Assembly: GCA_017654855.1 (NCBI GenBank)
Contig: CM030336.1
Coordinates: 4,340,001 to 4,404,000, forward strand
DNA length: 64,000 nucleotides
Reading direction: 5' to 3'
From: Podospora anserina
Taxonomy: Eukaryota
A program made the translations under genes and the position numbers. The notes below the pieces were generated by a model. It worked only from the letters and a program-made list of their open reading frames with translations, was not told the DNA's origin and did not search any database. Below, one piece after another: positions 15,182 to 57,594 of this stretch. Each line of letters opens with the position of its first letter. Within the stretch, counting starts at the first letter, position 1.

Positions 15182-16228
15182 ACGTACTTTATAAGCGAGT
15201 CGGTCATATAAGTGGGTCGGTCACTTTCAACCACCCTTCGAATACTATCCTCTATTATAATATAACGAAACTATTAAGCAACTATAATAACATTAGAAAC
15301 AGCTGAGTCTGAGGCATCTACAGCCTCCTGTTAAGTGCGTGCATTATGGCTAGGCTTGCCGCATACACCACAGCACTGAGTCTTCGTACGAGACTCCCCT
15401 GTACCACTACCACTTTATCGATGTTCCTGGATTACCTGCTCGCCCACGGCCTTCTGATTTAGTAGATCCTGTGCCTCTTATACAGTAAGTGACCCTCCAA
15501 GCCTCATACGTGTTTTTTTAGCTCTCCGGCGCTTGCTTAGTACCTCATTGGCCTTACGGAGCGAAGAGACCTCTATACGGAGAAGAGTTACCTCGTATAT
15601 TATACTTATTATTCCTTTAGTAAATTAGTTTATAGCGGTTAGTATTAAGGTTAGAAAGCTATTTTAATCGTTAGAAATTCGAGTTTTAATAAACGTTAAC
15701 TATAAGTTAGTTTCTTAAGGGTTATATAGTATTTAGGAGACTTAAGGTTATATAGTGCCGGGCTATAAGTTTAGAGGTATTAACGTATGTAGCTTTATAT
15801 TTAATTTAAAAAATACCCTCTTTAAATCGTACGGTATAAGGCTAATATCCATAAAGCTACCCAATATATTCTTTTTTATTATAAAAGCGAAGAAGGTTTC
15901 GCGGAAAGTATAAAGGAATTTAAATTTATTTATATAATTAATATATATATATATTAAGTCTTTAATTTAATAATTATATATTTACTTTAATAGCCTAAAG
16001 TAATTAATATTAAGTAATTAAAGAAAGTAGGAGGAGTATAGAGGTATATAAAGCGTAATAATATTATTTTATTAATAGTAGCGTTCGAATTTAATTAAGT
16101 AATAGTTTTTATAACCGTTAAAGATTAATAACCGGTATTTACCTTTTATACGGAACGTTATATGATAATCTAAATACTTAATTTAATATAAATCTATTAA
16201 ATTAATAGTATAATTATTATTAATAATT
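15182..16228 (-). mobile_element. Fot1/Pot-like DNA transposon, 3' half only (related subfamily), RIP-mutated
   Basis: TA followed by TIR ACGTACTTTATAAGCGAGTCGG. Colinear with 5453-~6500 of the first copy, including the zinc-knuckle region. Confidence 0.88.
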
Positions 16229-16635
16229 TATAACGAACTCCTATATAGAACCTCTAAAAAGGATACGGGTTAAAAGTAACTTTTAATAATTAGTTCGGTG
16301 CAGCTAGACAATGCATAATAAGATGTTTTAATATAAATATAAAATACCGTAAATATAATTGTAAATTACATACTGCGGAACTATCTATCTACACTAGCTA
16401 GTTTCTCCGTATATATAGACCTCGTGCCAAGCCATGATAAGTCTCCTAAGACCACTGATTACCTTTGCTTAGTCTGCTTAGTGCCCTGAGTATATTGATT
16501 ATCTTTGCTTAGTCTGCTTAGTGCCCTGAGCACACTAATCACTCGTTCTCCGCTGTAATTGGCTCTCTTATACATTCTCCCAATTAGCTCCTGCTCTCGT
16601 GGCCCCACAACCCGTCCTGTATTAAGGTTGTGACA
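16229..16635 (-). mobile_element. Solo LTR, crapaud/repa-like
   Basis: TG...CA type ends (TGTCACA on the minus strand). Its 3' half is the reverse complement of the conserved half of the LTRs at 18243, 32257, 34664 and 39689. Internal ~40-bp tandem repeat at ~16450-16540. Flanks TAATT / CTAGA do not match. Confidence 0.88.
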
Positions 16636-18036: not shown

Positions 18037-18717
18037 TATCCATTTCGCTTATTTACTAATATGCCCGCCTGGGACTTATATATTACCGTAAGAGGTACTT
18101 AGCCAATTCGCATAAAGCCAATCTTTTGTTAAGTCTTCCACTTTATTAAGAGTAATAAGCTGTAGCTAAAAGGATACCTTACCGAAGGTTTTCTCCTAAG
18201 GCAAGTTATAGTTCTCTCTCAGAAAGTATATAAAGGGGCTTGTGTTACGGTTCTGGAAGGCAGTGGGGCCACGACGGACTAATCAGGACTGGACCGCGTA
18301 ATCGAGCGGGGCTTACGGTCCAGGTGGGCAAACGGACCAATCAGATAGGGACCGGGGACCGCGGCGGAGCTCACGGTCCACGGTCCAGTATCGGCCAATC
18401 AGGAGAGGACCGAGGACTGTCTGTAAGTCAACGGTCCACGGTCCTAAGGTCTATATATACGGAGGAACTAGCCGGTATAAATAGATAGTTCCGTAATATG
18501 TAATTCAAGCTTATATTTACGGAATTTAGTGTTTATATTAAAATATTTTATTATACACTATTTAACTATACTAAACTAATTATTAAAAATTACCTTTAAT
18601 CTATATTCCTTTTAAAGGTTTTATATAAAGGTTCGTTATATATTATATATTTACTTTAACTTTATTACGGATAAGTTAAAAGTATTAAAATAATATTATA
18701 GCCGGAAACGTTAGTAC

Positions 18718-29500: not shown

Positions 29501-32256
29501 TAGCGAGATAATAACGGTAAACTATACTTAATAATTTTTTTTTTGAAAAAGTTTAAAGGAATATATTAAAATTATTTAATCTATAATAAAAAGTTATTTA
29601 CTATTATTAAAATATTTAAAGAGTAAAGGCTATACTTTAATAATATTAAGTACGAAGTATAGGTCTATACGGATTATAAAAATCTATAGTACTTTATTAT
29701 TACGAAAGTCTTTAACGTACGGTAAATATAATAATTAAAAAAATTTTCGGAATTTAATTTTTAAATTAATTATAAAAAGGGTTCGGAGAACGCTAAGGTA
29801 AATATATTTAGCCGGCGGGTAAATTATTATAAGGATATACCTAAAAGATTACTATTATTATTTAAAAAAGCGTTAAACGGTACATTTAAGTATTTATTAT
29901 AACCGTAAATAAAGTATTATATAATATATTATAAAAAAATTATTTTTAATAAATACTAAAAGAAATTAAATAACGATATTACGGAATAATATTAATAAAA
30001 AAATTAAAATTATAAAATATTTAAAAAAATAATTAAAGAAAATTATAATATAAAAATCGAGTATATATAATATTAAATAATAGAATAATATTAATAATAA
30101 AGATTTATAGATCGAAATTCGGAGGATATATAAGTATTATAAAAACTATAAAAAAGATTAAATAGTATTTTAATTAGCCGAAAATTAAAAACGATGTTAA
30201 AGAAATTATTTAATTATATTATATATATGAAAAAACGAGGGTTACGAAATATAAACTTTACAGATTTCTAAAGTTATTATCAATAATAAAATAATTATAA
30301 AATTTAATTATAATAAACTTTATTATTAAATTATTAAAGTTTAAGTATATGGTAACTAGCGTTAAATATAATAATATATTAATAATAATTAATAAACTTA
30401 TTAAATAAATATATTTTTTATTTTATAAAGAAATTTAATTAGTAAAGTAATTAATAAACGTAATACTATAGTATATTATAGTAATATATATATAATTAAA
30501 AAAGTTTATTACGGACCGTAATATTAAATTTGTATCGAAATTTTAAAGAATATTAATAATAAGGCTCGGGATAATAAATAAAGTATTTTCGGTTTACTAC
30601 CCTTAAACGGATAATTAAATAAAACGGTTTAATTAAATTATAAAATAATATTTATAGAATTATATTAATTTTAAATAAAATAATTAAATTAAATTATTAT
30701 TTATAATATAATTAGTATATAATATATTATTAATAAAAATAATTAAAGTTATACCGTTCTTTATAAACTTTAAATATAAAGTAGACCTACGGTAAAGACC
30801 TACGGTTAAAGTATTTAGGGCTAAAATTAAAATAAATAAAATATATATATTTTATAATAAATTTAAATAAAAATTAAAATTTATAAAAAAGAAATATAAA
30901 AATACTATAATACTAAAAAACTTAAAGGACCTCGTTTTAAAAAAGGAAATATAATATTCTTTTCTATATATAATTTAGGTATTAAAAAACTTAGTAAAAA
31001 GCTAAACTATAGGAAAGTAGGTCCGTTTAAAATTAAAAAAAAGATATCGGAAATAATATTTAAATTAAAATTACTTAATATAATACGTTTACGGTTATAT
31101 ACCTTTTATATTTTACTTTTAAAACCCGTATTATTAATAAATAAGGTTAATATATAAATAATAGCGGAGGACGAAAAGAAAAAGTATAATATAAAAGAAA
31201 TATTAAATTTACGGTTTAATAAAAGTTAATTAAAATATTTAATTAATTAATTAAAATATTTAATTATAAATAATTTATAAAAATTAAAAATAAATTTTAA
31301 TTATTTAAATAAATAAAAAGAATTTTATTAATAATATTTAAACTAATTAAAACTTAAATAAAAAAAATAAGTTCCTAAATTACCGCTAAACAATAATAAT
31401 ATAAAAATTAAAGAACTTTAATAAAAATCGAACCTATATTTTTAACGTAATAATTAATATATTATATACTACACTACGAAATTAAAAAATATAAAAAAAC
31501 TTAAATATAAATAATACTACGCGTTTTAATTATCCTAAAAAATAAAAAGCGTACCTTCGGCGGTACTTTATAAAGTTAAAAAGGAAAGACCGGTTACGCT
31601 CGGGTTTAAAAAAAGGTTAAGCGGCTAGTCGAAGTTTAAAGAAGGATTTAGGAAGGAAAGATCGGAGGGAGTAACGGAAACGTCCGCCGCCAGCGAACTA
31701 TATAGGGTAGTAAGCCGCGCGAAAGACTCTCTCTCTTCCTTTTTAAGGAGCCGAGATTCGTAACGGAAAGTAGTAAGGGCTCGAACTTTAAAGGTACGTA
31801 ATTATATTTCGAAACGAAAAAATTTATTTAAAGTAATTTATTTTTCGATATTTAAACGTTCTTTCTCTTTAATTAAAAAATAAATTATAAAAATAATTAA
31901 AAAGGGGAAAGAAAAATTAAAGAAGAAATTTACGATTTACGTTATAGATATTATAATAAGAACGATTCGAGTTAATATACGGGAAGTACCGGTTGTATCG
32001 AAAGAAAGTTATATATTAAAAATTATTTTTTTTATAATAAATATATTTAAATATAATAAAATTAAACTTTTCGAGAAAATATATTTAATTATAATAACGG
32101 TTAATATTTATATAAATTAATTTCCTTATATAATTAAATATAATAATTAAAATAAAAAAAGAAAGGAATTTATAGTAAAAATATAGAAAAAAAGGGGATC
32201 GGTAATTATTTTAGAAATATAATTGCCGGAGTATCGATTTAAGAAAAGGGGTATTA

Positions 32257-32750
32257 TATTATAATTAATTTAACGGTAAGTCGCGCTATATATAAAACGT
32301 AAATCGCTTCTAACTAATTATTTAAGAAGTTAAGGAATAAACCGATTAGGGTTAAATAAAAGTATTATAGCGTTAAGGTTTATAAATAGTTTATAAAATA
32401 TAAAATATTAGGGATAATTAGAAATATAATACGACGAGTATAATATAAATATAATATATTAAAAGTAATTAAAAGTATAGTACGACGAGTATAATATAGG
32501 ATATAATGTGCTAGGAGTAATCGGGGCTATAGTAGGGCGAGTACTTTACGGCCTTAAGGTTTATATATACGGAGGAACTAGCTAGTATAGATAAATAGTT
32601 CCGTAGTATATAATTTAAATTTATATTTATAGTATTTTATATTTATATCGAGATATTTTATTATATACTATTTAGCTGTACCGAATTAATTATTAGAAGT
32701 TACCTTTAATTTATATCCCTTTTAGAGGTTCTGTATAGAGGTTCGTTATA
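32257..32750 (+). mobile_element. Internal LTR of a different crapaud-like subfamily (494 bp)
   Basis: Preceded by PPT AAGAAAAGGGG. The 3' half matches the other LTRs (TATATATACGGAGGAACT...GTTCGTTATA) while the 5' half is unrelated to the LTR at 18243. Confidence 0.85.
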
Positions 32751-33940
32751 AAGTACGATAGTATATTAACGGTAATTAATAGGCTTATTAAATAAATATA
32801 TTTTTTACTTTATAAAGAAACTTAGTTAATAAAGTAATTAATAGATATAATATTATAATATATTATATTAATATATATATAATTAAAAAGGTTTATTACG
32901 GACCGTAATACTAAATTTATATTAAAGTTTTAAAGAACGTTAATAACGAAGCTAGGGGTAATAAGTAAAGTATTTTCGGCCTATTACCTTTAAACGAACG
33001 GTTAAACGGAACGGTTTAATTAAATCGTAAAATAATATTTATAAAATTATATTAATTTTAAGTAAAATAATTAAATTAAATTATTATTTATAATATAATT
33101 AATATATAATATATTATTAATTAAAATAATTAAAGTTATATTGTTTTTTATAAATTTTAAATATAAAGTAAACCTATAGTAGGGATCTAGCGTTAAAGTA
33201 CTTAGGGCTAGGATTAAAGTAAATAAATTATATATATTTTACGGTAAATTTAAATAAAAATTAAAATTTATAAGGGAAAGGATATAGAAATATTATAATA
33301 TTAAAAAGCTCGAGGGACCTTGCTTTAAGGGAGGGGATATAATATTCTTTTTTATATATAATTTATATACTAAAAGATTTAATAAAAAGCTAAACTATAG
33401 GAAAGTAGGTCCGTTTAAAATTAAAAAAAAGATTTTAAAAACGATATTCGAATTAAAGTTACTTAATATAATATATTTATAATTATATATTTTTTATATT
33501 TTATTTCTAGAACCCGTACTACCGGTAAATAAAATTAATATATAAGTAATAGCGAAGAACGAAAAAGAAAAGTATAATATAAAAAAAATATTAAATTTAT
33601 AATTTAAGAAAGGTTAATGAAAGTATTTAATTAATTAATTAAAATATTTAATTATAAATAATTTATAGAAACTAAAGGTAAATTTTAATTATTTAAATAA
33701 GTAAAAGGAATTTTATTAATAATATTTAAACCGATTAAAATTTAAATAAAAAAAATAAATTTTTAAATTACCGTTAAATAATAATAATATAAAAAGTTAA
33801 AAACCTTAATAGGAATCGAACCTACGCCTTTAACGTAATAATCGATATACTATATATTATACTATAAAATTAAAAAATATAAAGGGGATTAAATATAAAT
33901 AATATTACGCGTCTTAATTACTTTAGGAAATAGAAAGTGC
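32751..33940 (+). repeat. Direct duplicate of the integrase-chromodomain region (copy of ~30364-31550)
   Basis: Colinear matches, e.g. TTTATTACGGACCGTAATA, AAAAGCTAAACTATAGGAAAGTAGGTCCGTTTAAAATT, AAATTACCG.TAAA.AATAATAATATAAAA. Confidence 0.9.
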
Positions 33941-35166
33941 GTTCTCGGTAGTACCTTACGGGTTTAGGAAAGAAGGACCGGCTATATTAAAATTAAAAAA
34001 AAGGTCGGAAGGTTAATTAAAGCCTAAAGAGGGATTTAAAGCGTAAGGAGACTATAGAACGGTATTCTGGGCGGCGGACGGCCGCGTAGGAGCACCCGGT
34101 AAAAAATCGGATAGCGCCGTAACTATAGACTGCGCTACCCGGGCATCCTCCTTCTAGATACCGCGTGCGAAAAGACGCTTCTTACGTATACGAAGAGAGT
34201 AACGTATTTATTTTACCCGAATAAACTTAATAATTAATTATAAAAATTAATTTTTAAACTTTTATTTTTTACGCTCGAACCTATTTTACTCTTTTATTGT
34301 TCGGGTTATTATTAAACGGTTAATAACGGAATAAAAAGAAAAGGAAAATATATTTACGGGCAAAATTAATATTAGACCCGTTATATAGAATTTTACGACG
34401 TACGTATTTAATATATTATAAAAATCCGGAGGTTATAATATAAAAAATTCCGGAGGTAAAATAGGTAAAGTATAGTATTATAATAATACTATAGCGGGAA
34501 ATTCGTAAGGTAAGAGTAAAAAACTTTTTAGTTTTACAATAATATTTCTATATACGGTTAAATATAATAAAAATAAAGAAAAGTAAAGAGAAAAAACTTA
34601 TAATATCGTTAGTAATAAAGGAAGATTAGGCCGTAGGGATTTCGGCCTAAAGGAGGAATATTATATTACGGTTCTGGAAAATAGTAAGGCTACGACGGAT
34701 TAATTAGGACTGGACCGCGTAATTAAGCGGGGCTTACGGTCCAGGTAAGCAAACGGATTAATTAAATAGGGACCGGGGACCGCGGCGGAGCTTACGGTCT
34801 ACGGTCTAGTATCGGCCAATTAGGAGAGGACCGAGGACCGTCTATAAGTTAACGGTCCACGGTCCTAAGGTCTATATATATGGAGGAACTAGCCGGTATA
34901 GATAGATAGTTCTACAGTATATAATTTAAGCTTATATTCACGGAATTTAGTATTTATATTAAGATATTTTATTATATATTATTTAGCTACACCGAACTAA
35001 TTATTAGAAGTTACTTTTAACCCGTATCCCTTTCAGAGGTTCTGTACAGAGGTTCGTTACAGTTTATTTTTATAATATTTCTACCCCTTTTTAAAGCACA
35101 GCTACCTTCATTATTTCGCCTCCGCCCCTTTAACTTAATTTACAATCCACGCCATCCTCACTTAAA

Positions 35167-36270
35167 ATAAGCTCCACTATAGGAAGTTTGATTTATGCCT
35201 TCTACGATACGCCTTCCTTAACTATAAACCCGCGACCTAGTGTAAGCCGTAAAGCTTGGGCCAACTACTATCGCATGCTGCATCCGCGACATATAACCTT
35301 TCACGAGGGAACTATAGGATCTATCAACAACTTTCTAAGCCCTAGCCTCAACTATAGCAACAATCACGATCAGCAACTACCCTCGGAGGCTAATAACATT
35401 GGTCTACAGAACCCCGCTTATTCTTTAAATCTCCTTTATTAAGAAATTTTAAACGAAGGCGACGTAACCCGTGACTTCGACTAGAATTTTAAACCGTTCT
35501 GTTTAGCGTTTTCCTATGGGCCGTTTCTTTGGCCTAGATCGCTCTGTGGACCGACTAGACCGATAAATATATTAGTAATAATTAATTATTAATTTACGTA
35601 GTTAGGACTAAACCCCTTACTTAAGAGAGCCGCTATAATAAAAGAGTATAAACAGCCGTATATTATTATACTAAATAAGTGGGCATTAAGTTAGCGGGGG
35701 TAGGTAAATAACTTAGGCGATATAACGAAGAGACTCTAAAGAGAGATAAAAAGGTAAGTAATATATATTTAATTAACTTTTTAAAACTTATCGGAGAGGT
35801 AAATATACGTATCGTTATAAGTGCCTTTAAATCTTCGTTTTCGACTTACTCCACCTCGTCATTCTGCAATTCAGAGCTGCGAGCAAGGATTAGATACAGG
35901 ATAAGAACTACTACGTTAATATTTGCATTATACCCAGGGGGCAACTCTCCTAAAAATAATATACTATCTAATACGCACTTTACCGATTAGTATGGAAAGG
36001 CTGGATGCGTTTTTCGGCGATATTAGTAACTTAGTAGGGTTCGAAAAGAAAGACGGTAATTATTACTATTAACGGAATACCTCGTATATACGAATAGTGG
36101 TTAGGAAAGCCATTGTGGGAGGTAGCTCCTGGTCGTTACTAGTATAGCTATCTAAATAGATAGAAATGCTAGTTTTTTAGATTAAAGACGGGTAGGTATT
36201 GGATTTAGGCGGATAATAATAATAATTATCCGGATAAAGGGTTAATATATAATACTAAAAATTATTTATA
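35167..36270 (+). pseudogene. RIP-inactivated PD-(D/E)xK-like (restriction endonuclease fold) protein gene
   Basis: One frame plus an intron (35754-35802); the stops are TAA/TAG codons explainable by C>T or G>A changes; start ATG>ATA. Reads NEGDV...IN(D)Y...IIKEYKQP...KRL*RE.KR(G)YTYRYKCL*IFVFDLLHLVILQFRA...YALYRLVWKGW. Confidence 0.6.
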
Positions 36271-36414
36271 GTAATTATATCGGCTATTTGTAAGACTGGC
36301 GGGCGGGGGTCTAAGTTAACTATAAATTTTATTTATTACCCCTTATAGATTTTCCTTTAAATCTAAACGTTAAAGGTTTCTTACTATTCTAATCGCCTAC
36401 TTTTTTTGTTAATT

Positions 36415-37164
36415 ATGTATACGGATAACGAGCTACTGTTGCAAAATGATAAGCTCCCTTTGGTAAGCTAAGCTCCTGTAGGTCTCTATCACTATTGGCG
36501 TTAACACTAGCAGGAATTTCGTCTCGGTAACCGGCTTATCGTTGCTGAAAAGGCCGAGTTGTTGCTAGAGACGGTGTACCGCCTGGAGCTCAAACGACCG
36601 CCCTTGCTCATTGCGCTGATCCAACGGTTCGCTTCTCTTTGCCCCTGGGCAAGAGCACGTTGGCCCGAGTGGTTTTTACTAGCGACAGTTATCCTTAAGA
36701 AGCGAAAGGCCGGCTGGGAAGCAGAGTTCGAAACAGAAACACAAGCCTACGACGTCTTGAAGCCGATTCAGGGAACCATCGTGCCGTATTTCTATGGCGA
36801 AGCTGTGTATGATGGATCCCCAGCATTGGTTCTGTCCCTCATCGAGGGAGAGACCCTAACCCACCTTTGGCGCTATCTCCCCGAACAAGTTTTGCAAAAG
36901 CGGTTTGAGGAGGCTCTTGGTGCTCTGACATCATATGGAGTCCACTACACCGATGCGAAGTTGGACAATTTCATGATGCGGAATGACGGGCGATTGATGG
37001 TCTTTGACTTTGAGCAGGTGAAACTCGGAAGCACAAGGAGTTGGGAGGAAAGTCCCAATCGCGACAATGTTGGTTCTATAATGAGAGGCTTGAAGATGAG
37101 GCGCGTGCATTTAGAGCGCCAGCAAGCCCGGGTTGGCCCTGCCTGGACTCGCCCCCATGGTTAA
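36415..37164 (+). CDS. Small atypical protein kinase-like protein (~232 aa)
   Basis: Exon 1 at 36415-36462, GT-AG intron 36463-36513, open frame to TAA. Motifs: VILKK (beta3 Lys), EFETETQAYDVLKPIQGTIVPYFYG (alphaC Glu), GVHYTDAKLDNF (catalytic loop), MVFDFEQ (DFG-like). Confidence 0.8.
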
Positions 37165-37428
37165 AGTTTGGGGCGAAAAAATAAGCATGAGTTGGAGACC
37201 TTGAAAGACACGATTGGGAGACGGGAAGCTAGGCACAGGAGGCGGAATTTCGGTCCTTGTTTTGTTTATAAATGTTTGCAAGTGCGGAGTCTCGACTGCG
37301 AAACTGCGACAAACTATAACGAAAGAATCTCTTTGAACCTGCCAGAGAGTAAAATTGCCGTCTGAAACCTACCCGCTTCCCCCCCCGCGCCTGCCGTAAT
37401 GCTCCCTCCTAATTCCTAACGCTATCGA

Positions 37429-37548
<120 letters not shown>

Positions 37549-38914
37549 CTTACACCGCAAGGGCAGTTGCCCCGCCCTATAAGAGCATGCGGTCCCTCCA
37601 CGTTATCTTATATGCAAGGCATCCCCTCGCGTACTGCGCCGTAGTAGCTTTAAGATTGCTTAGGCGCTCCCAGTAATCCCACGTATCTAATAGTCCAGAA
37701 CTTACCTTTCCGGCCTGGTGACGGCGAAGCTGTGAGCGGCCATCCGGCCGAGTGCTCCACTAACGTCTTTTTCCTCGCCACCTACTCCCTCAGACCCTTT
37801 ACATCCGCACACAGCGCGCAGAGGTATTGTTTTAGTTTAAATAAAAAAGAAATACGCGGCTATGAGGTACACAATTGCCTAAATTTAGTAGCAACTTATT
37901 AATATAATAACTCCCTCCTATTACTTTAGGATTGCCTCAGACTGCCCCCTCCTAAAGCCGCGCAATCGTAACTTAATTAGCAATCGGGCTTCCCTTCTCT
38001 TTAAAATGCAATGGAACTGTCAGATAACACAATGCACTCCTTAAGGGTAAATATCATGGGGGTTGCAACAGTGTGATTATATTGCTTATCCTGATGTGCG
38101 CTCCTGTTCCTTTAAAGCTAAAGAACCTCAATTATATCTATATATAGTAATAGCATTAGTAATAAATAGTACTATATCCAGCTAAACTAATTACGTTAGT
38201 TTTAGCTTCCATAAGCTCCTATTTAGCTTAATTAACTAGAATCCTTTTTTATTTAACATACCCCCTTAGATTTAGCTAAGCTTAAATTTAGACTATACTA
38301 TATAGAATCTAGGTCTTTAGTTCTGTAACCCCTAATTGTTAAAGGAAACGTTAGTAAAGTAAATTATTTAAAGCTTTAATTAAGCCGTTAATTATTATAT
38401 TATTTAAAAGTATATATTCGAATTTTATTATTTTACGATTAACCTCCTATCGAAACTAATAATTATAAATATTTATATACCGGAGCTTAATTTATAAAAT
38501 AATTATTTTTATAATTACTATTAATATGTAGGTATTATTAAGTGCCTTACTTATTGCCTTATAGATTAATATTATAGTGGGCAGTATTGCTATAAATAAT
38601 AATGGAACTTCCCAGCTTAGATCCCTTTAGAATATTTTTTATAAGGGACCCTTAAAGGCTTACAGGGCTACTGTGGCCTAAAGCTTAATTAATAGATACT
38701 AAAACCTTCTAAAGAAGCTACAGACTTACGTAATAAGTTGCTACAATAGTGTGATTTATAAGGCACCTTTACTACCGAAGGTTCTATAGATTTCCGTAAG
38801 TCTATATATTATAACCTGCACCGGGAATGGATATAAACTACAAGGCAATACGCTAAAGGTAAATATAACAGGATAATCGAAGGTTATAATAAGCGTCTTA
38901 AACAAAAGGTTTAC

Positions 38915-39315
38915 TATTAATAACAGGTCGTTCTATAAAAAACTATTTAAGAGTAGATTATAAACAAATAAATTTAATTACTTACGTAAGGAATTAAATT
39001 CCTCGACACGGAAAGCGCTAGGCGCTCCCTCCTATTTATATATAGTTATTTACATATATTTCTAAAGTATCTTTATACCTTACTTAGTATACTTAATAGT
39101 CTTAGCGACTAAGCAGACTAAGTAATTTTTTATAATCGATGTGCTTAGTATGCTCAATAGTCTTAGCCACTAATTAGATTAAGCACCTCCTAATTAGTTA
39201 CATAAGGACTTTATAGATCTTCCTATTCCTGGCCCAATAATTAGCTAAAGTGTCCCAGCACCTCGGGAACCACCTAGTAGTTCCTTCACGAGGTTATTAT
39301 ACTTGGGGCGTAACA
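38915..39315 (-). mobile_element. Probable solo LTR of another family
   Basis: Minus-strand start TGTTACG at 39315; TATA-like TATATATAAATAGG; internal duplicated segment; candidate 4-bp TSD TTAC/CTAC. Left boundary uncertain. Confidence 0.5.
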
Positions 39316-39688
39316 CTACACTAGACCCACCTAAGCCCACTAAATACCCCAAAGTAGTATAGGGGCTTCCAGGGCTTACAGGACCCACAGTAGGCTTACG
39401 AAGGCCTATATATAAACCTCTCCTCTCTCTTGTAGAATAGTTCCTTTCTTTCTTTCCCTAAGGGCAAAAGTTTAAGGCTAAGGCTAAAGGCTAAGGCCAA
39501 GGGTAATAAAGGCAATTCTTATTCCTTATACCTCACTGTATTACAGTGCTTTACTTTCCTTCGGCACTGCCGTCGTATCTTCCTACTTCCGCTTACGCAC
39601 TGCTGTATTTTACAGCAACCCTGTATAGGTTTTATATTATAGGCCTATTAGGGCTTACTAGCTAACATATATTATAGGCTTATCAGGG

Positions 39689-40056
39689 TGTCACGGACCT
39701 GACATAAGTGGGGAGCGCGGGGCGCGACCGTCTAACCACTGAAACGGAAAAGTGGGGAAGTCGGATTATTATTAGTGCTAAGGGTGATAATCACGATTAT
39801 CACCAGCCTTCGATGAACGACGAGTAATAATCGACATTATTACTAGTGATAATAGTGATAAACCGGTCTATATATACGGAGGAACTGGCTAGTGTAGATA
39901 GACAGTTCCGCAGTATGCAATTCAGCTTATATTCACGGTATTTAGTGTTTACATTAAGACATCTTGTTGTGCACTCTTTAGCTGCACCGAACCAATTGTC
40001 AGAAGTTACCTTCAACCAGTATCCCTTTCAGAGGTTCTGTACAGGGGTTTGTCACA
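39689..40056 (+). mobile_element. Solo LTR, crapaud/repa-like, little RIP damage
   Basis: TGTCAC...TGTCACA, 368 bp; the conserved 3' half retains CpA/TpG; flanks CAGGG / GTCGG do not match. Confidence 0.9.
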
Positions 40057-42203
40057 GTCGGCGCTTATATGCTTCAGGTTCATTAAAAAACTTAGGGGTA
40101 TAAATATAAAAATAAGGAAGAAATCTTCCTTAGATTTTGGCAGTATGTCTTCCAGAAACAGCATTGGATTTCTCTCGAAATGAGAGTCGAGATATTTATA
40201 TATTTACCCGGACGTTTAAACTCCTGTCGCGAGAGGGCCGCTTTAAAACATAGCTAAACGCACCCGCTCTTAGCTACTCTTATCTCGAGAATGAACCACG
40301 GCGGGTAAAGATAATAGTATAAATACTTTATTAATTTAATTAATGGATTTAGGGCTATTTAGGTTATAAATACTTTAAACAGTTTTCGGAGTCGTTTTAC
40401 CGCTTAACGGGATCCTCTATCCGGATCATCCCTATATAGAATTCGGTATAATTTACGATGCTATTTCAAGGTATATAGTAAGGCGGCGAGGGTACGTACA
40501 TTATAGTAGATACGGAAGGCGGCGTTTCTATAGCCTATATTAAGCGTAATATCGCTTTCCAAATTAAAAATCAAATCCTAAATAATAAATTTAATATAGA
40601 AATTTTATATTATAATAGTACGTCGTAGGTTATATATTTTAGGTAAGAGAGCGATATTATTATTGGTTAAAGAAATATATAATAATGATGTTTATTAGAA
40701 AACCTAAAGATAAGCCTGCTTACTAATTATCGCCTTTAATGCCTCCGCCCTACCCGGTTATTAATTAAGGCTGCCTACATAATAGTTCTTTTTAGTCCCG
40801 TCGGTGTTACTAGACCAGTACGGGAAGATGCAACTGACCATCCGCTTCAATTCTTTGATCGAGCACATGTAGCAAGCCCTGTGAGTACAAGCATAGGTAT
40901 CGAGACCAGCAGAAACTTCGGACTGGCATTCGTGGCATTTCCAACCGCACTTTTTGGACGCCTTCGTGCGGTAGGAGCTGTTGTCGCAATGGCCAGCGTC
41001 ATATTTAGTGCTTGTCGTATAGTTTGTACCCGGTGCAGCGCTGCAGTTGACCGTTCCAATCATAAACAGCAGCTCTGACGGCATCTTCACACTCCATCGC
41101 ACTCTCAGGGATCCAGACAACATTGCCCGAGAATGGAAACGCCGACGGCCCCATCCAACCCACGGAAGGATCTTGCCCGTCGAAGAGAAATCCCGACGAC
41201 GGAATGTTGGGTTCCGGCATACCGCTGAAGAGACGGAGAGGGGCCAGCATTGCCAATACCCATCCCGAAGAAGTCTGAAAGGGAGGGGGTTGAGGTTGAA
41301 GTAGTGAATACGGTATCCAATAGCGAAAGGGGCGGTTAAGAATAGAGCGGCAATCTCTGTGTGCAATGCAATCCAAGTGTGCTTTTCAAACATACTACTG
41401 CATGGCCAGCTTCTGAATACCCAGCACAGGCCGGGTCAGCACGTTGTTTCAAGGGAGCCCATATTGTGAGTGCACGACTTTGGCCTGCAAGAAACCGGCT
41501 GTGGGCCCAGTAGAAAACAGCCTCAGAGTATTTACATACAATTCCAACTGATATTTTTATCCATAAGAGGCGGACAATAACAAGGTCGGCCGGCCGTGCG
41601 GCAACATCCCACAGCAACTACGGTGAAGAGTGGCACCCAGTGATCTAACCAATCACTGTTAATCTTGAGAGCCACCCGCTGCACGCCTAAAATAAGGTGG
41701 TTGGCGACAGCGTGTTTCAGCATATGATATTCCTGCTAGATTGACTGTCTACCTACGAGAGCTTGGGATCTTCTCCGTTACACCCAACCTTTTCGAATCG
41801 AAAACAGATGCAAGGAAACTGATTGCCAGCCAATTCACTTCAGCCAGGGCGCATATCCTCCAAATCCTGCTTCTGAATGGTTGCAATCATGACTTCAATT
41901 TGCACACCCTTGGGTGCCTCTGTCCAAGCCACAAGTCACCAGCAGGTATCCAAACCCAAAGCAGCTTGTGGCGGTCTCGCACGGTGACAGCCTGCCCCTC
42001 AAGCACCGTGATTCTCAGCCGGCTGGATATCTGAGTTTGTCGTGTAGTTTGCAGGGAAAACATTCGGAGTTGATCAAACACGCGACATGATGGATAGACC
42101 TGGATGAAATGGATCGGGCACACTCGGACACAGGATGCATCCACCAACGTAAATGAAATTACTTCCAAGACGCAAAGTTCACAAGCGTCGTAACATAATG
42201 CCA

Positions 42204-43655: not shown

Positions 43656-46600
43656 CTAATACCGATGCGTCTGAATCCCCCTTTTCCCAAAAAAGCCGTT
43701 CCTTAGCACATTGCTACTCGCCCTCTTCATCAACTTCCCAAAAGTCCCCTTTTGATCTTCAGACCCACCACCACTATGACTATCATGTTCTGAATTAATC
43801 TCACCAAGCTTGTTGCTCGATATTTTCTTCGTGATTGACTTGGCATGCCTCTTGATCAGAGTTCCCAAAGGAATCTTGGACGGCTTCCAAAAATGCCGTT
43901 TCCGGTGGTCATCCCCATCATCCTCCATGTGCTGAGCATCGGAATTTGGTGACGACTGTCGTAACTTATGCCGACCTTCATCATTCGACTCTTCCCCGAG
44001 ATAGGTTATTTGAGAAAGGGGACTCGGCTTAGTAATAGACGGCGATACCGGTCCTGAGGCTGGCGCTACAGTCGACTTTGGGGTGGTGTTAAGGCCGGGC
44101 GACGAAGGTGCAGATAGCGGGGGCCGAATGCCCTTTGGTGTCCGGTTGAAGACTTTGGATAGAATGGTAGAAGTAAAGCGTGGGGGTGACTCGGCCGGTT
44201 TCATCACGACCTTCGTCAGATGTTCATCTGCGGGCAGCTTCACTATTGTCAAAACGCCACCCGGGGGGCCAGGTCGTACTTCCTCGTTCCATTGAAAGCC
44301 GTACTTGGTCTTTCCCGGGACCAGCTTCGATTCGGCGAGTTTGACCTCTGGTCGCAGTCTGCACCCGTAAGAGCCAACCCAGCAGCGCGGATCACGCGTG
44401 TGACGAGTGATCTGAAGCCTCCCGGACCGCGTCAGGGCTGACCTCTGACCAGGCGTAAAAGGGAAGGTGGCTGCGGTGCGATACTTGCGGTGTTTCTCAA
44501 TTCGTGTCTTCCAGCCAGGGCCTCTGGGAATCTCGTCTTTTCCCCAAACGGCGTATATCAGCTCGTTCGCATAGCTCCGAGTGGTGCCCACTATGGTAAG
44601 ACTGTCGATGTGGTGGCCTATCGTCTTCAGTGGGTCGAGGATGCAAAGATAGGCATCTGGATGATACGGTACAAATTCTTGAACGTGTTAGCAAGTGTGT
44701 AGAATTGCATTGGGAGCATAAAGGCTTACCCTCATCGTCGTTCTCTGCGGTCTCATCGCTGGCGTGACTGGTGTCTGACCAACCCGATGATTCTTCCTCT
44801 GTCTCTGGCTCATCATGCCTGACTCTTCGTTCTGCCGACCCCTTCTTCCACTTCATTCCTTCCCGAAAGCCGTAATACCTGCGCACCATCAAACACAAAT
44901 TCCCAATGTTGACTCCGTCGGCCCTGGTACACTGCAAGTCGGCAAATCTCAACACCAACTGGCGAACTCTCTGAAGTCCTCTCCATTGATCCACACCGAC
45001 AGCAGTTGGATGAACATTCCCTCCCAACTTGGTGTAGTCAACCTCAAGCGTGATGTATCTCATCAGAGGAACGAAGGAGTCCATCAGAAGTGTCGCTGTC
45101 GGGCAATTCTTCTCCGCCACAAACGGGCTGTACACAACGTGAAATCTCCGAGCAAGGAAGAAGGCGGCGAGAAAGTCGACACGCATGTCGTAGCAGACTG
45201 ACATATAAGGGTAAAGCGGAGAAATTGCAGACGCAAAGGAGTCCAAACATTCTGTAGTCCACAGCTTGCGACCATCCAGAGGATTCAGGGGCCATATTGG
45301 CTCATAGCAATGCGGAGGGTTCATGCGAACAGGCTTTGGATTGAGGTTTCCCGTATTGTGATCGTTGAGAATCATGTTGGTAATCTTGAAGCGGGCTCGA
45401 TCGGGCAATAAGAAGTAAAGACAACGGTTTAATCTTGCTAGGCCTTTGAGCTGAGGATACCTTCCATTTTGGAGTCCTGTATGGTTTAATGTGTGTGTGC
45501 CATCGGGGTCACGGGAAGCTCTTTCCCTTCTCAGACGAAGAACTCCTTGCTGAAAGGACAGCTCTTTGTCAAAGATGAACTTATCCGCCGGGTTGTTGAG
45601 CGTTCTCTCCCACGTTACCTCGACAGTCCGATCCCAAGGAGGGTACTCGAGGGGAACGGGAGCCCGTTCCGGGGAGCGGAGAATTCTTACCGGAGGCGCA
45701 TACCCAACGAATCTGGGCAGTTTCGGAGATTCTTGCTTCTGTATACGTGGCTCATTGCCACAAATGAAGAGTCCACCACTTGCAAGTGGATGGAATGGGA
45801 CAGCCGGTTTATCTGCTGCTTCAGTTCCCAGATCATTAGCAGGGACTCGAACGGTCGGCGTGTCCGGAGGCGCTCGCAAATCTGATGGACTTTGATGCCC
45901 CTCTGAGCACGACGGCGACGTTTTGCCGGCGCTTGACTCTCCTTGCCGCGATTGGGACTCTTTTTCAATAGCCGGTGTGGGTACTGGTGGGGAGATAATG
46001 GGTGTTATCCAAAGTCCTTGAATCTCAGCTGGGTGTTTAAGATTCACATCCACACAATGCGGTGAGGATATGCTCTGAAACAGTGCCTCGGTAAATAAAG
46101 CAGGACTGCCTGGGGGCTTCAGTGGACACTTTGGCGATGCTGGGGTCGGCGGGAGTGTTGGCACAGTTGGAACTGCAGCTGGGGTTGTGGAGGGCCTGCT
46201 GGGGGCTGCCAAGGATGGTGGAGTCGGAGAAAGCTTCACAGAATCTCTCGAACCCCCTTGAGTTACCGAGGCGCAGGACGAACTCCTGCGTGAAGCAGAA
46301 GTAGAGGGTGAAACAAGCTTTGACGAAGCAGTTGAAGTTGCAGATACCGGGGTTGTGGGCAGACTCGCATGTGCCGCGTGATTTCTTGATGGAATTCGCA
46401 TCTGAAGCTGTTTGCCTTGGGTCCTTGTCAAACTTCGAGATTTTGCGCTCAAGAGTGGATAGTGAGACGAGCACCCACGGTCTGGATCCTTGGCTATTCT
46501 TGTGTCTTGACTTTCTTGGGCTGCAGAAAGCCTGCCAGAAGGCGTGGCAGTCGTTTGACTGGCTGCCGACTTGGCCAGGATTCTCGTCGAAACAGAGTGC

Positions 46601-47640
46601 CCAGATACCCTTTCTGGCCTCAATGTTACCTCATGAGTGGATGAACGCCTACTGGGTGTGGTCGGAGTTGGTAGTCTCTCGGATATCCCTCCAGGCGCTC
46701 CCCCAGGAGCAGTCACAGTTGTTTGCTTCGCCAACCTACCGCTTCCTTCTTGATTAACAAGTGTTTCAGTTGACGCAGTCCCCAATTGCCTCGAGGTTGC
46801 TTGGATTGTGGAAGGCTTTGATGATGATGTCCCTTGCTTATCTTGTGTTTTTACGGCATCCTGTACCGGGGATGATCTGGCTGGAATGGCGGATTGAGTC
46901 GCAGAAGCTCTGACGGGTTGACGGGGAGTAGGGGATCTGGTGGGAGGTAGAGTTCCGTTGGTTGGGTTGCCAACCGTGGAGGCAGAGCCAACCTCCCTTG
47001 TCTCGAGTTGGGCGGGGAGTCTTTTGGCCTTTGTGAGTGTCGGCGTGGGTGCAGGAGAAGGCGCCTTTGAGTCAGTTTGCCACGTGCGTGGCCCTGATGA
47101 TGGTACAGCCAAAAGGCTAGCGGGGCGTGGTCGAGGTTCGGTCTTTAATACTCCAGATGAAAGCAAAGCAATAGGGGAACCCAGAGCGACTGGTATGCCA
47201 GAGAGCGATTGTCTCCTCGTCTCAGTACTACTTGTTGCCCTAGGGGGGACAGGTGCTTTGCTTGATGGTGTTGCACCTCGTCCATGTTGTGTCGTGGAAG
47301 GTCTTGGTCCTATTGGCGTAGTTGAGCTCCGTGGCCCTGGCAGGGAATATGATGAAGGACTTGTGAGTCGGCTGTTGCTTTTGGATTGCTTGGGGCCACT
47401 TGACGGCTTTGGACGTATCTTCACTCCCACCATTGACGGCATCGAAGACGGTTTGCGTAACGATGAGGCAGACAAGGACCTGTGCCGCGCTGCTTGAGGA
47501 CTGTGTGACTTCGAACCGCCAGGTAGAGCTGTATTTTCTCCTTTGGGCGTAGGGGGCTGGGTGAACGGTGGAGTTTGTGCGGTTCGGATTGTCTGCCTGG
47601 TGCCAGTGAATGTTGGCGCAGATAGCCTAAATATCGGCAT
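43656..47640 (-). CDS. Large hypothetical protein (~1310 aa) with Ser/Pro/Thr-rich disordered N-terminus and globular C-terminal region
   Basis: The 1047-aa ORF is joined in frame to the 43656-44591 ORF by a GT-AG intron at 44678-44729 (CTAAC branch site). Confidence 0.85.
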
Positions 47641-48797
47641 GTTAAATTTGGAATTTCAGACTTTGCGATATGGTATACATCGGGAAGGCTTGCGTCCATC
47701 AAGTACGTGGGTGGGACAAGCAAGGGCGGGGATGGGCTTGTGGAGGCAACTGGGTATCACAAGGCCAAAAGTGACAGAACAAGTGAAGTACTGACAACTC
47801 GGTTTGTTTCAGAGGTATCCGTGAGCTAGAGCCACCCAGGGCTAGAGGTGAGGATTTTCTGATGTCGCCCGTGGTGGCCGGGGGACCACCACCCTCGTTC
47901 TCGAGGACAGCTCCATCGTCAGGGGCCTCATCGTCATCATCCTCCAACAGGCGCGCAGTGCTCCCTGGTTGTCCGGCTACGGCTGTTGCGGGCTCCGGCG
48001 GTCGTTGTATCTCCATTTGTATATAGATGGCTGTGTATTCGAGGTAGAGAAAGTTGGTGATGCTGCCGTCTTTAATGGCAGTGGATGCTCGGCGCAAGCC
48101 ATTCCGATCCCGCCTTGGGTTTTCGCGACTAAGCTCCCCCTGACTTGTGCCACAAGAGCCGAACCCAATGAGTACGCATCATAGCTCATGGCCCCTTAAA
48201 GTTCCCCCACCATGGGCGACGAAGCCCCAACGGCGATGTGGTTCTTAGGACACGGCTAACGGCGCTACACCAACAAGGCGAGCCTTTCAAGGCGGCGGGG
48301 CAGCCATCATATATCTGGGGAGTTGGAATGGATGAGACAAGCCCAGCTCAGGAATACGAAGAAATAGGGAGGTCGCTGCAAGAATTCTGCGACAGTTGCT
48401 GGCGTGAACGAGATGGAGATGTTGTGGCACACAGCGAGCAGCAAGACAGTCTTGGCAGTCACTTATTGGAATTGGCTTGGCGGATGTCAAAAGCGGGTCC
48501 ATGCCAAGACAGCATGAAGTGTGAAGTGGTCTAGATAAGATAAGATCATGCTGGGGTTGTTATCGATAACAGCCTAACCCTGGCAACCCCGCGAAAAAAC
48601 GTCAGTCACCCCGCCATAAGCTCTGGCGGCTGCTTGAAGCTTCTGGTGCTGTCTCGTGGCGCCCGCCCTTGGTATTTTTGCCTCTTACTTTTTGCGATAA
48701 AACATTTGCTGACGGCGCCTCCCATAATTGTGCTGCTCTCTTGATAGCTGCACACATAAACCAACATTTACCTGAACCGCAAAGACCAACCATCACC

Positions 48798-55641: not shown

Positions 55642-57594
55642 CACGACTTCCCACCAAAGTCAGGTTTTGGGGTCCGTAGGAGAGGAAAAGGCTGGGCACA
55701 GTGGGCAGGTATGCTTGGGCAACGGAGGGTGTATATCAAGTCCGAGGAGGCTCTTTCGTTGTGGAAAACTAGCTCACTCTCACCTCTTCTGTAAATTTAC
55801 ATGGCTGTATATTTTCCACTTTCGCAAACCAGCTCCAGTTGGAGAATCCCCTTCCCAGCAGATCGGGAATGGCCAAAATCTCATGGAACAACTCACGACC
55901 CGTTCGCCATCAGACGAAAACTCGGTCGTCCCGGACGAGATGAGCTGCGCGCTCAGGGATGGACTGGTCTTCCCTAAAGAGGTTCAGGAGTGATCTCAGG
56001 CACGTTCCCCGCACATAATCTAGATAAATAGACCTTGTGACGAAGACACGGCGTTGTCCATATGGCGGCTATATTTGACCACCACTGCCCACCCGGTCTC
56101 TGGGTAAGTGGCGGCAATATCAACAACCAGCACCTGCAGTTTTGACAAAATGTGCAATAGTCATGAGTGCAATATTGGTATCACGATCTCTGCTGATTGC
56201 CTCGTTGATTCGATAAAATGGGCCGCAAAACAGGCATGACGATCAAAAGTTTCAAGAACCACACGCCAAGCCCAAGGTAGGTAAGGCGTATCGATGGTGG
56301 CGAGTAAGTGATCCCATGTGGCACTCATGTGGCAGTCGTGTGGCCGCCGTGTGGCATTCATGTGGCATTGAAGGACCTTGCCAGCATGCCTGCAACATGT
56401 CGGCAGTCTTAGAGAGCTCAATCAATTGGTCTGGGGTACATGGGGTGCCCCGAATTCTCCGGCGTGGGGCACCATCGACTTTTGCCGCGAACCCCAACGT
56501 CACTGCGAGATCTGTCAAGCTGGCTTGGCGGACATATGGTCCACTGGAGCCTGAGTACCCGTGACGATCGGGGAGCCAAGCTAGTGACAGCCGTTCTGGA
56601 ACGCTCAGGTTGAGTTGGGATGTTGGTAGGTCTTGTCAGGGGCAGACCGGTATTGCTGTATTAGGTACCACCATCGACGCAGCGTCGTCTTCCACTTGGT
56701 AGACGATCAGTGGACCGATGTTCTCCAGATCCAACAACTTTAGAAACCTCAACGATTCGGCCAAGACAAGATGGAAACGAAACAAACACAACAATAAAAG
56801 AGATGATAAATCCTGCCCCAAGCCCCTCTCGTCAATCCCACAATCGGGACTGGGTCAGCCGTGGCTGCATTCGGAAGCATCCCGTCGGCCGGTGCCAATC
56901 GGCGGTCGAAGTAGAGGCCGAGGGTCAACGAGAAGGTGTGTGTTTGATCTGCGATGCGCCGGCAAATATCCATATTACCCCCAATCAGTCCCCAATCTCG
57001 TCGAGAATTCACACGGGCTTGGGAACACGTGCAGCCTCCGCCATCATCCAAAGTGCCAAGACAGGGTAACAACAGACAATCGTCTTTGTTTTGCCTTCTG
57101 CCGCCGCCGCACGCATTTGACCCCTGTTGACGGGAGACAACCACGTTGAATTCACCCTGCCAACCAACCAAATGTCAACCATCGCCATCGATCTGGGTGG
57201 GGTACAGCGTCCGTTCCCGGGGGAGGGAGGACAAGCAAGGCTGCACCGTCTTCTTCGCCACGCTTGAGGAATCTGAGAAGCGGATTGGAGGAATTATTCT
57301 TGTAGGGGTTGACCAAGATTCAATATCAGCTCGACCCATGATTGATTGCAGCCGGCAAGGCCGCAGGGAAGCAAGCGTCCGGAGAATATTGCAGATGACG
57401 CCGCGCCAGGCACAGCTCCCGCATCCCTTTTTGGCCCCTACCACCGGACCGGGATGGGGCTCATGAGGGGAGGCCGAGCGAGTAGCTGAGTCCATATAAG
57501 GATCAGAAGTCGTCAAACGACTTGCCATGGGAAGGGGTAACCAACTCTTTGTGTTCATCTCCTGACAGCACGTCTCCTCCCAAGAATTGTCATC

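Follow-up and report, generated by a model that had tools for sequence, protein, structure and literature searches.

At positions 35167 to 37164 of a 64,000-nucleotide stretch of Podospora anserina chromosome 5 (GenBank assembly GCA_017654855.1, contig CM030336.1, positions 4,340,001 to 4,404,000 of the forward strand; this whole stretch is the window, and positions are counted from its first letter) lies the locus of gene Pa_5_11665. There we found two co-oriented genes in tandem: a nuclease-like gene that repeat-induced point mutation (RIP) has destroyed and, directly downstream, a small kinase gene that is still open (Table 1). An earlier note, made from the sequence alone, had proposed that the two might form a split version of the Spok meiotic drivers, in which the toxic half was lost and the putative antidote stayed open. 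The pair sits within a 26-kb AT-rich, RIP-mutated block (approximately 15–41 kb, GC content 0.13–0.44), flanked on both sides by normal, gene-rich DNA.

The upstream gene was recognised through its read-through translation, which retrieved P0031, an intact protein of 348 residues from Parathielavia hyrcaniae, at E = 3.7e-72 among 5.8 billion proteins. Aligned back to the window with tblastn, P0031 matched in two segments with a joint E of 8e-118: 35167–35751 (residues 1–191, 122/195 identical, 63%) and, in the next frame, 35804–36268 (residues 193–347, 98/155 identical, 63%). Because the homology changes frame between 35751 and 35804, the pseudogene has an intron there; the single frame from 35167 to 36270 assumed in the earlier note is wrong after 35753, where a 43-nt intron is followed by the +1 frame up to 36271. 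Spliced in this manner, the model has 354 codons with 20 premature stops, compared to 26 stops in the single-frame reading. When set against the closest intact relative (P0048, Triangularia verruculosa), all 20 stops fall at Gln (15) or Trp (5) codons, and 95 of the 98 amino-acid mismatches are explicable by C>T or G>A changes alone. The last Gln codon now reads TAG (36269–71), the original stop being the TAA at 36272–74. RIP is indicated by TpA/ApT values above 0.89 and (CpA+TpG)/(ApC+GpT) values below 1.03; across 35167–36270 the two indices were 1.4–1.6 and 0.46–0.52. The upstream gene was thus inactivated by RIP, as had been proposed from the sequence. Regarding its catalytic codons, those for E (35455–57) and for E-Y-K (35644–52) are kept, and the codon for D136 has become one for N (35584–86). 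No RNA contigs were placed on the pseudogene, an absence from which silence cannot be read.

The annotated nuclease-like proteins P0046 and P0048 of Podosporaceae begin at an internal methionine (MGSID...), and P0046 lacks six residues (SQRGWV). The N-terminal 52 codons missing from both models have a homologous, stop-free sequence still present in the window. These gene models may have been drawn so as to dodge lesions, and the species concerned may thus carry a damaged gene as well.

An exhaustive HMMER search with P0031 delineated an Ascomycota family of 202 cluster representatives (50% clustering level) at E <= 1e-3, 117 of them at 1e-10, whose complete members are mostly 300–370 residues long. 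In an alignment of 30 members, E93, D95, D136, G155 and K158 are at least 90% conserved, and position 156 is occupied by D or E; the alignment also shows the helix motif ELRGYA..Y and D206, which is invariant. The E..D..ExK..RxxGY arrangement pointed out in the reconstructed protein corresponds to E93, D136, E156-x-K158 and ELRGY, residues whose conservation among the 30 relatives is 90% or more, or close to it. A second candidate for the nuclease motif, the out-of-frame sequence MERLDAFFGD..VGFEKK near 35990–36060, was rejected, since the family alignment places the motif in exon 1.

The AlphaFold2 model of P0031, built with 130 sequences, had a predicted local distance difference test score (pLDDT) of 94.4 and a predicted template modelling score (pTM) of 0.93. 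It contains the alpha-beta-beta-beta-alpha-beta core fold of PD-(D/E)xK nucleases at residues 93–205 (helix 93–111, strands 118–123, 135–141 and 150–157, helix 181–196, strand 201–205), with E93 at the start of helix 1, D136 on strand 2, and E156 and K158 at the end of strand 3. Using VIA-align, a method independent of Foldseek, against 48,161 chains, the best match was the nuclease domain of BpuSI (Z 10.1, root-mean-square deviation 3.8, 146 residues), followed by DrdV (Z 8.3), HsdR of V. vulnificus (3h1t, Z 7.7), two proteins with a restriction-endonuclease (REase) fold (Z 6.9), TT1808 and HsdR of EcoR124I (both Z 6.2), and then EcoRI, SgrAI, NucC, Cas4 and others. Judging by title, 17 of the top 20 rows were nucleases or REase-fold proteins, the rest being two mitoribosomal proteins and the FAST/RAP module of FASTKD4. 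Since a best Z of 7–8 is the stated common background of VIA-align for unmatched models, the fold call rests on the consistency of the matches together with the placement of the motif. From the model and the conserved motif, which agree with the REase fold expected in the earlier note, we conclude that the upstream family is a PD-(D/E)xK nuclease-like family.

The likeness to BpuSI (3s1s), DrdV (7lo5) and HsdR (3h1t, 2w00), enzymes of types IIG/IIL and I, lies in the core topology and in the placement of the D...(D/E)xK residues. The family differs from them in lacking a methyltransferase, helicase or specificity module, and the protein here is fungal, has extra N- and C-terminal parts, and is only 8–14% identical to them. 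The structural matches covered residues 10–268 of the model only. Beyond these, a beta-rich C-terminal domain (residues 268–348 of P0031) is well predicted and carries SG-x-P-x-W and G-x3-W motifs. Cysteines recur in the family consensus, as CPQ and C-x-V-D-C (in P0031, 199 and C228-x4-C233-x11-C245); of this region only the neighbouring P200 is among the positions reaching 90% conservation. NCBIfam and PADLOC returned nothing for the three nuclease-family members searched.

The downstream gene comprises 232 codons, and its two exons are identical over 218 residues to PODANS_5_11665 (P0039, P. anserina S mat+); the product of exon 2 (P0001) is 97% identical to a protein of Podospora pseudoanserina. 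It conserves the motifs AYDVLKPIQGTIVPYFYG, GVHYTDAKLDN and DFE. Among 34 relatives, conservation reaches at least 90% at K78/K79, E87, E91, D163, N168 and D181, and the window retains all of these residues. With the AlphaFold2 model of the kinase (pLDDT 86.7), Foldseek gave at least 500 PDB chains at E <= 1e-3, all matches listed having the kinase fold, and VIA-align gave Rio2 as the best match (Z 13.2), then PKR, RNase L, PknB, Ark1, Rio1 (11.9) and Bud32 (11.2). The bilobal fold, the beta-3 Lys, the alpha-C Glu, the catalytic-loop D..N and the metal-binding Asp are all present. Pfam scores were below the gathering cut-offs (APH 22.8/23.2, Pkinase 22.0/31.7, ABC1 16.4/22.9 bits), and searches of NCBIfam and PADLOC with the kinase gave no more than weak kinase matches, those in NCBIfam being to Bud32 and Kdo kinase. 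Judging from the model, the protein is a minimal kinase of RIO/Bud32/Kdo-like type with a complete set of catalytic residues. It resembles RIO, Bud32 and Kdo (WaaP-like) kinases in its size of about 230 residues, truncated C-lobe, HxDxKxxN-type loop (HYTDAKLDN) and DFE in place of DFG, and differs from RIO kinases in lacking their flexible loop and wing domain.

Contigs from all four probable RNA runs lie on 36384–37199 only, at low depth; given their earliest position, the kinase transcript begins at or before 36384. In run X1, one contig passes from 36461 straight to 36513 and so leaves out 51 nt bounded by GT..AG, in agreement with the predicted intron; a contig of run X4 keeps part of this intron. 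The kinase gene is transcribed and spliced. The P. anserina allele alone carries P72L (36679–81, C>T) and K92T (36739–41, A>C), at sites with at least 90% conservation among 34 relatives, and it also carries D5N. The description of the kinase as still intact therefore stands for its reading frame only. The close spacing of the two genes was confirmed, the spacer measuring 140 bp where the earlier note gave about 145.

Table 1. Features of the gene pair and its immediate surroundings, in window coordinates.
Feature	Position	Strand	Remarks
LTR-like (long terminal repeat-like) repeat copy, RIP-mutated	34666..35067	+	Found by self-BLAST; ends 100 bp 5' of the pseudogene
Exon 1 of the RIP-killed PD-(D/E)xK nuclease-like gene	35167..35753	+	Start ATG changed to ATA; bears the E, D (now N) and ExK codons
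Predicted pseudogene intron, 43 nt, GTAAGT..AG	35754..35796	+	Frame change +1; model collinear with P0048 and P0050; from sequence, no RNA confirmation
Exon 2 of the pseudogene: rest of nuclease core and C-terminal beta-rich domain	35797..36274	+	Located by tblastn
Intergenic spacer, 140 bp, RIP-mutated	36275..36414	+	From the stop of the nuclease gene to the kinase ATG
Kinase exon 1, 16 codons	36415..36462	+	MYTDNELLLQNDKLPL; matches annotated P0002 and P0039
Kinase intron, 51 nt, GT..AG	36463..36513	+	Splice in an RNA contig; residues missing from the annotated orthologues
Kinase exon 2, 216 codons and TAA	36514..37164	+	D163 at 36952-54, N168 at 36967-69, D181 at 37006-08
(ATT)n microsatellite	37429..37546	.	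Perfect, ~39 units; 265 bp past the kinase stop; bounds the little-mutated island

In seven further Sordariales pairs the genes lie next to each other, and in an eighth species they share a contig. Accessions are consecutive in P. pseudopauciseta (KAK4667569 / KAK4667570), T. verruculosa (KAK4196880 / 881), Parachaetomium inaequale (KAK4034609 / 610) and T. setosa (KAK4170896 / 897), and locus tags are consecutive in Corynascus sepedonium (VTI28DRAFT_7184 / 7185), Thermocarpiscus australiensis (VTK56DRAFT_6308 / 6309) and a second, diverged pair of P. bellae-mahoneyi (QC761_0086030 / 0086040; P0014 / P0205); in Canariomyces notabilis both genes lie on one 73-kb contig. Across these, the identities of the nuclease-like proteins and of the kinases co-vary (r = 0.99, for 28 non-independent comparisons among 8 pairs). 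A single family protein out of 174, P0062 (498 residues, ~42% identical to both halves), is a fused nuclease-kinase model, in which the C-terminal domain of the nuclease protein is absent. This fusion may be a gene-prediction merge; even then, it implies adjacency and co-orientation of the two genes in a distant species. A complex prediction for the Parachaetomium nuclease-like protein with its own kinase scored 0.00, with alignments not used, and counts neither way.

It could be argued that the upstream protein is nuclease-like in fold yet no enzyme, having a structural or binding role, and that the adjacency reflects just the shared descent of a recently spread segment. PD-(D/E)xK folds without catalysis do exist, two of the five top structural matches are mitoribosomal proteins, and most of the adjacent pairs belong to one shallow clade and are hence not independent. 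On the other hand, E93, D136, (D/E)156, K158 and D206 are kept down to 25–30% identity, and adjacency is found also in Thermocarpiscus (~72% identity) and in the second pair of P. bellae-mahoneyi (~55–60%), and is implied by the ~42% identical fused model. We regard this explanation as improbable.

The organisation of the pair recalls two known systems. In Spok proteins, a PD-(D/E)xK domain kills, with K240 being essential, and the best HHpred match of the Spok3 killing domain is HsdR of V. vulnificus, 3h1t (Vogan et al. 2019, PMC6660238); a C-terminal Kdo-like kinase domain (D667) protects, in cis as well as in trans (PMC6660238, PMC9972908, PMC12693581), and a conserved Cys/His cluster, C-x3-C-x13-C-x5-H-x7-H, precedes the kinase (PMC6660238). 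About one-sixth of Crinkler C-termini are described as REase-kinase fusions (PMC5289972), in which toxicity is ascribed to the REase and a regulatory role to the kinase (Zhang et al. 2016, summarised in PMC5289972). Our likeness to Spok is drawn from described features, shared folds and language-model neighbours, and not from alignment to a Spok sequence. Like Spok1-4 (IPR052396; PF27653, SPOK2_N), the pair consists of a nuclease of the HsdR/type I-IIG kind and then a small Kdo/RIO-type kinase, in the same order; 3h1t, the best HHpred match of Spok3, is among the top structural relatives here (Z 7.7), the span from catalytic D to K is 22 residues versus 21 in Spok3, the kinase has its weak Bud32 and Kdo-kinase matches, and both systems occur in Sordariales and in P. 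anserina itself. In the ESM Atlas, SPOK2_N was found on 5 of the 30 nearest clusters, the best being at rank 20 (score 0.92, 183/256 features), with a representative of 341 residues and SPOK2_N on 76% of its members. In contrast to the single Spok polypeptide of more than 700 residues, there are two genes here, 140 bp apart, with only 1/174 family proteins fused, and the nuclease-like protein has the extra C-terminal beta-rich domain (residues 268–348). With Crinklers, compared by description, the pair shares the coupling of an REase-superfamily domain to a protein kinase domain; Crinklers differ in being single secreted proteins with an N-terminal header/Ubl domain, as opposed to two separate, cytoplasmic-looking proteins. 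The likeness to Spok extends to the modules, their order and the structural match to 3h1t, and not to the single polypeptide or the Cys/His cluster.

We therefore give an even chance to the following reading: a conserved two-gene cassette of Sordariales and other Ascomycota, composed of a nuclease-like effector and a linked kinase that restrains it, whose nuclease gene was killed by RIP in P. anserina. In this cassette, the upstream gene encodes a protein of ~350 residues with a PD-(D/E)xK core and a complete motif, and the downstream, co-oriented gene the minimal kinase of 232 residues. The former would be a DNA-damaging effector, and the latter would keep it in check, a division of labour demonstrated for the two domains of Spok and suggested for REase-kinase Crinklers, here distributed between separate genes. 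RIP has put the P. anserina nuclease gene out of action (20 stops, loss of the start, catalytic D to N), with the frame, transcription and splicing of the kinase kept. By analogy with the known systems, then, the intact family members would have nuclease activity and toxicity, the kinase would neutralise them, and the cassette might behave selfishly, as a driver. The claim concerns the working of the cassette and not membership in the Spok family. What is new is the splitting of a known nuclease-kinase design over two genes, with a putative function taken from that design; our non-exhaustive literature search found no paper on Pa_5_11665 and, in its Spok-centred part, no description of a split Spok form.

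Several results weigh against the cassette reading. Regarding the nuclease assignment, Pfam assigned P0031 to no family and its 130 relatives to none of nuclease or Spok type (whether that copy of Pfam contains PF27653 was unchecked), a PDB sequence-profile search of the family gave nothing below E = 0.17, and Foldseek of the P0031 model versus PDB had no match at E <= 1e-3, with DrdV, BpuSI and HsdR 3h1t among its rows; the best VIA-align Z of 10.1 is modestly above the background of 7–8. Regarding Spok, the kinship is a lead from the language model combined with shared general folds, and not an alignment; the Spok Cys/His cluster was found in 0/217 proteins with a relaxed regular expression, and the helix motif is ExxxY at +31 from the catalytic K here versus QxxxY at +54 in Spok3. 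Regarding the linkage, adjacency was taken from the order of accessions and locus tags and not from DNA; neither of two long metagenome loci with kinase paralogues of 45–53% identity had a nuclease-family open reading frame (ORF) within 6 kb; and the nuclease gene of Parathielavia lies on a different contig from the sole kinase match in that species. The pairing is therefore not universal; the expectation that homologues be neighbours elsewhere was borne out by seven pairs, the shared contig and one fusion. Finally, given P72L and K92T, the P. anserina kinase itself may be decaying.

The metagenome kinase paralogues (L001 6001–6717 and L002 5934–6644) contain an in-frame stop or are spread over several frames, which introns or pseudogenes could explain. 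A metagenome scan with close nuclease relatives found none.

The distribution of the cassette is at odds with taxonomy. Copies from Chaetomiaceae (Parachaetomium, Corynascus, Canariomyces) and Podosporaceae (Triangularia, Podospora) are 84–93% identical and form one short-branched clade; the copy of Thermocarpiscus, also from Chaetomiaceae, is ~72% identical and falls outside that clade (P0033, P0003 and P0004 compared with P0038, P0037 and P0006). For scale, orthologues of P. anserina and N. crassa average 60–70% identity (PMC2441463). Some genomes have second, diverged copies of the cassette or kinase with 52–60% identity (P0205/P0014 in P. bellae-mahoneyi; P0004 and P0009 in Canariomyces notabilis), which implies several paralogous lineages within Sordariales. 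These incongruent identities would fit either horizontal transfer or old paralogy with differential loss. A more specific version of the cassette reading is that of a Spok-related, two-gene toxin-antidote or spore-killer family that moves horizontally among Sordariales, whose killer was disarmed by RIP in P. anserina and some sister species, the expressed kinase being kept as a standing resistance gene; in this full form we consider it quite unlikely.

The same distribution bears on a more mundane explanation, in which the genes form an ordinary cellular pair with a role in, for example, allorecognition, regulated cell death, the repair of DNA or protection from foreign DNA, the kinase regulating or cooperating with the nuclease in a non-selfish manner, and what P. 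anserina lost was just a gene that it could spare. Any functional partnership would suit the observed folds, motifs and linkage; the family is fairly large (the 202 representatives), with several paralogous lineages per order, as in accessory gene families; and the loss in P. anserina came at no evident cost. Nevertheless, the distribution is patchy and devoid of Pfam or other annotation, the copies lie on small contigs (7–135 kb) or in repeat-rich RIPed DNA, and they are 84–93% identical across two families, traits that one would sooner expect of accessory genes that are selfish or mobile. Moreover, the nearest named language-model neighbour is a Spok family. We judge the ordinary pair to be on the unlikely side.

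Why the nuclease gene died while the kinase stayed open can be addressed from the pattern of RIP along the locus. The spread of RIP from repeats is a sufficient cause for the death of the nuclease gene, and likely came from the LTR-like copy at 34666–35067, because the gene starts 100 bp away from it, with a Ty3/gypsy remnant nearby. The RIP signal does not decay smoothly. It is heavy in the spacer up to 36414 (indices of 1.57 and 0.23 for 36271–36414) and slight in the kinase, whose third-codon-position GC content (GC3) is flat at 0.55–0.64 throughout the coding sequence and whose indices are 0.39 and 1.67 in the 3' two-thirds (36800–37164); it becomes mild again at 37550–38000, and strong from 38 kb. 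The least-mutated island of the 26-kb block is thus the kinase transcription unit. Four sister species have the kinase annotated under an identical locus tag (511665), and P. comata has it too. This retention at the same locus and the coincidence of the island with the transcription unit suggest selection for the kinase, which may be under purifying selection. P72L and K92T, in turn, argue for some relaxation of that constraint.

The asymmetry could also carry no functional meaning, if position relative to the flanking repeats alone chose which gene died. The nuclease gene lies 100 bp from the LTR-like repeat and the kinase 1.35 kb away, this repeat has four more copies in the window, and the whole block at 15–41 kb is RIPed. 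RIP also grazed the kinase gene, as three of its four differences from T. verruculosa P0038 are of C>T/G>A type (D5N, P72L and R230H, the fourth, K92T, being a transversion). A purely positional effect would sit less well with a signal that does not fade gradually but drops from the spacer values of 1.57/0.23 to a flat GC3 in the kinase, with RIP-type composition returning downstream, so that the least-mutated island matches the kinase unit and purifying selection is suggested. Neither does it account easily for the kinase at locus tag 511665 in four sister species and its presence in P. comata. We see position alone as a possible cause, though a somewhat doubtful one. Accordingly, in the earlier formula of a toxic half lost and an antidote kept, the dead nuclease and the open kinase are borne out, and the repeat 100 bp away may explain the contrast between them by its position.

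Regarding the surroundings of the pair, further copies of the LTR-like repeat were found by self-BLAST at 18245–18646, 32548–32748, 16208–16422 (minus strand) and 39865–40058, 82–86% identical to the one at 34666–35067. The five copies of the RIPed block measure 200–400 bp and are 77–86% identical among themselves. A remnant of a Tf2-1-like SH3 domain (Ty3/gypsy integrase) was recognised in the read-through translation at ~33336–33474, and the block probably consists of the remains of gypsy elements disabled by RIP. In run X2, short contigs with a very high depth of 316–619 map to the terminal part of the LTR-like repeat (35019–35057); either this repeat family is abundant in that probable RNA run, or it is highly multicopy. 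AT-rich low-complexity DNA similar to the (ATT)n tract occurs also at 6.5–6.8 kb, with GC content down to 0.10.

Comparison of the six-frame read-through of 37165–41003 and 31000–35168 with Pfam revealed neither a third cassette gene nor a Starship captain, the Tf2-1 SH3 remnant being the sole match. Around the gene pair we did not find terminal inverted or direct repeats, just chance AT-rich matches. Kinase-bearing Logan contigs with a recurrent length of ~2.43 kb were considered as a candidate mobile unit and rejected, since this length is that of the unique island 35067–37429 between the repeat and the (ATT)n tract; short-read assemblies would be expected to break at both, and for this reason these contigs were not counted as evidence of mobility. 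In the flanks, the ORFs at 44497–47655, 57175–59151 and 43656–44687 (all on the minus strand; 1052, 658 and 343 residues) had no Pfam family at E <= 1e-3. The remaining flank genes are ordinary: ankyrin repeats, a ferric reductase, an ABC transporter, a major facilitator superfamily (MFS) transporter and Duc1.

No fungal meiotic drivers have been studied better than the Spok genes, and we know of no account of the way in which the Spok kinase domain neutralises the nuclease domain. If the cassette is truly a natural split version of this design, toxin and antidote would be separable without engineering, so that each could be expressed, purified and titrated alone, and a direct search for the substrate of the kinase would become possible. 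Such a split version would likewise inform our view of fusion and fission in the evolution of nuclease-kinase conflict modules. In the same species that serves for work on Spok drive, it would further provide a case of RIP, acting as a genome defence, disarming a killer and leaving the resistance gene in place. Even without selfish behaviour, the cassette would still represent an unannotated nuclease family of Ascomycota with a dedicated kinase partner.

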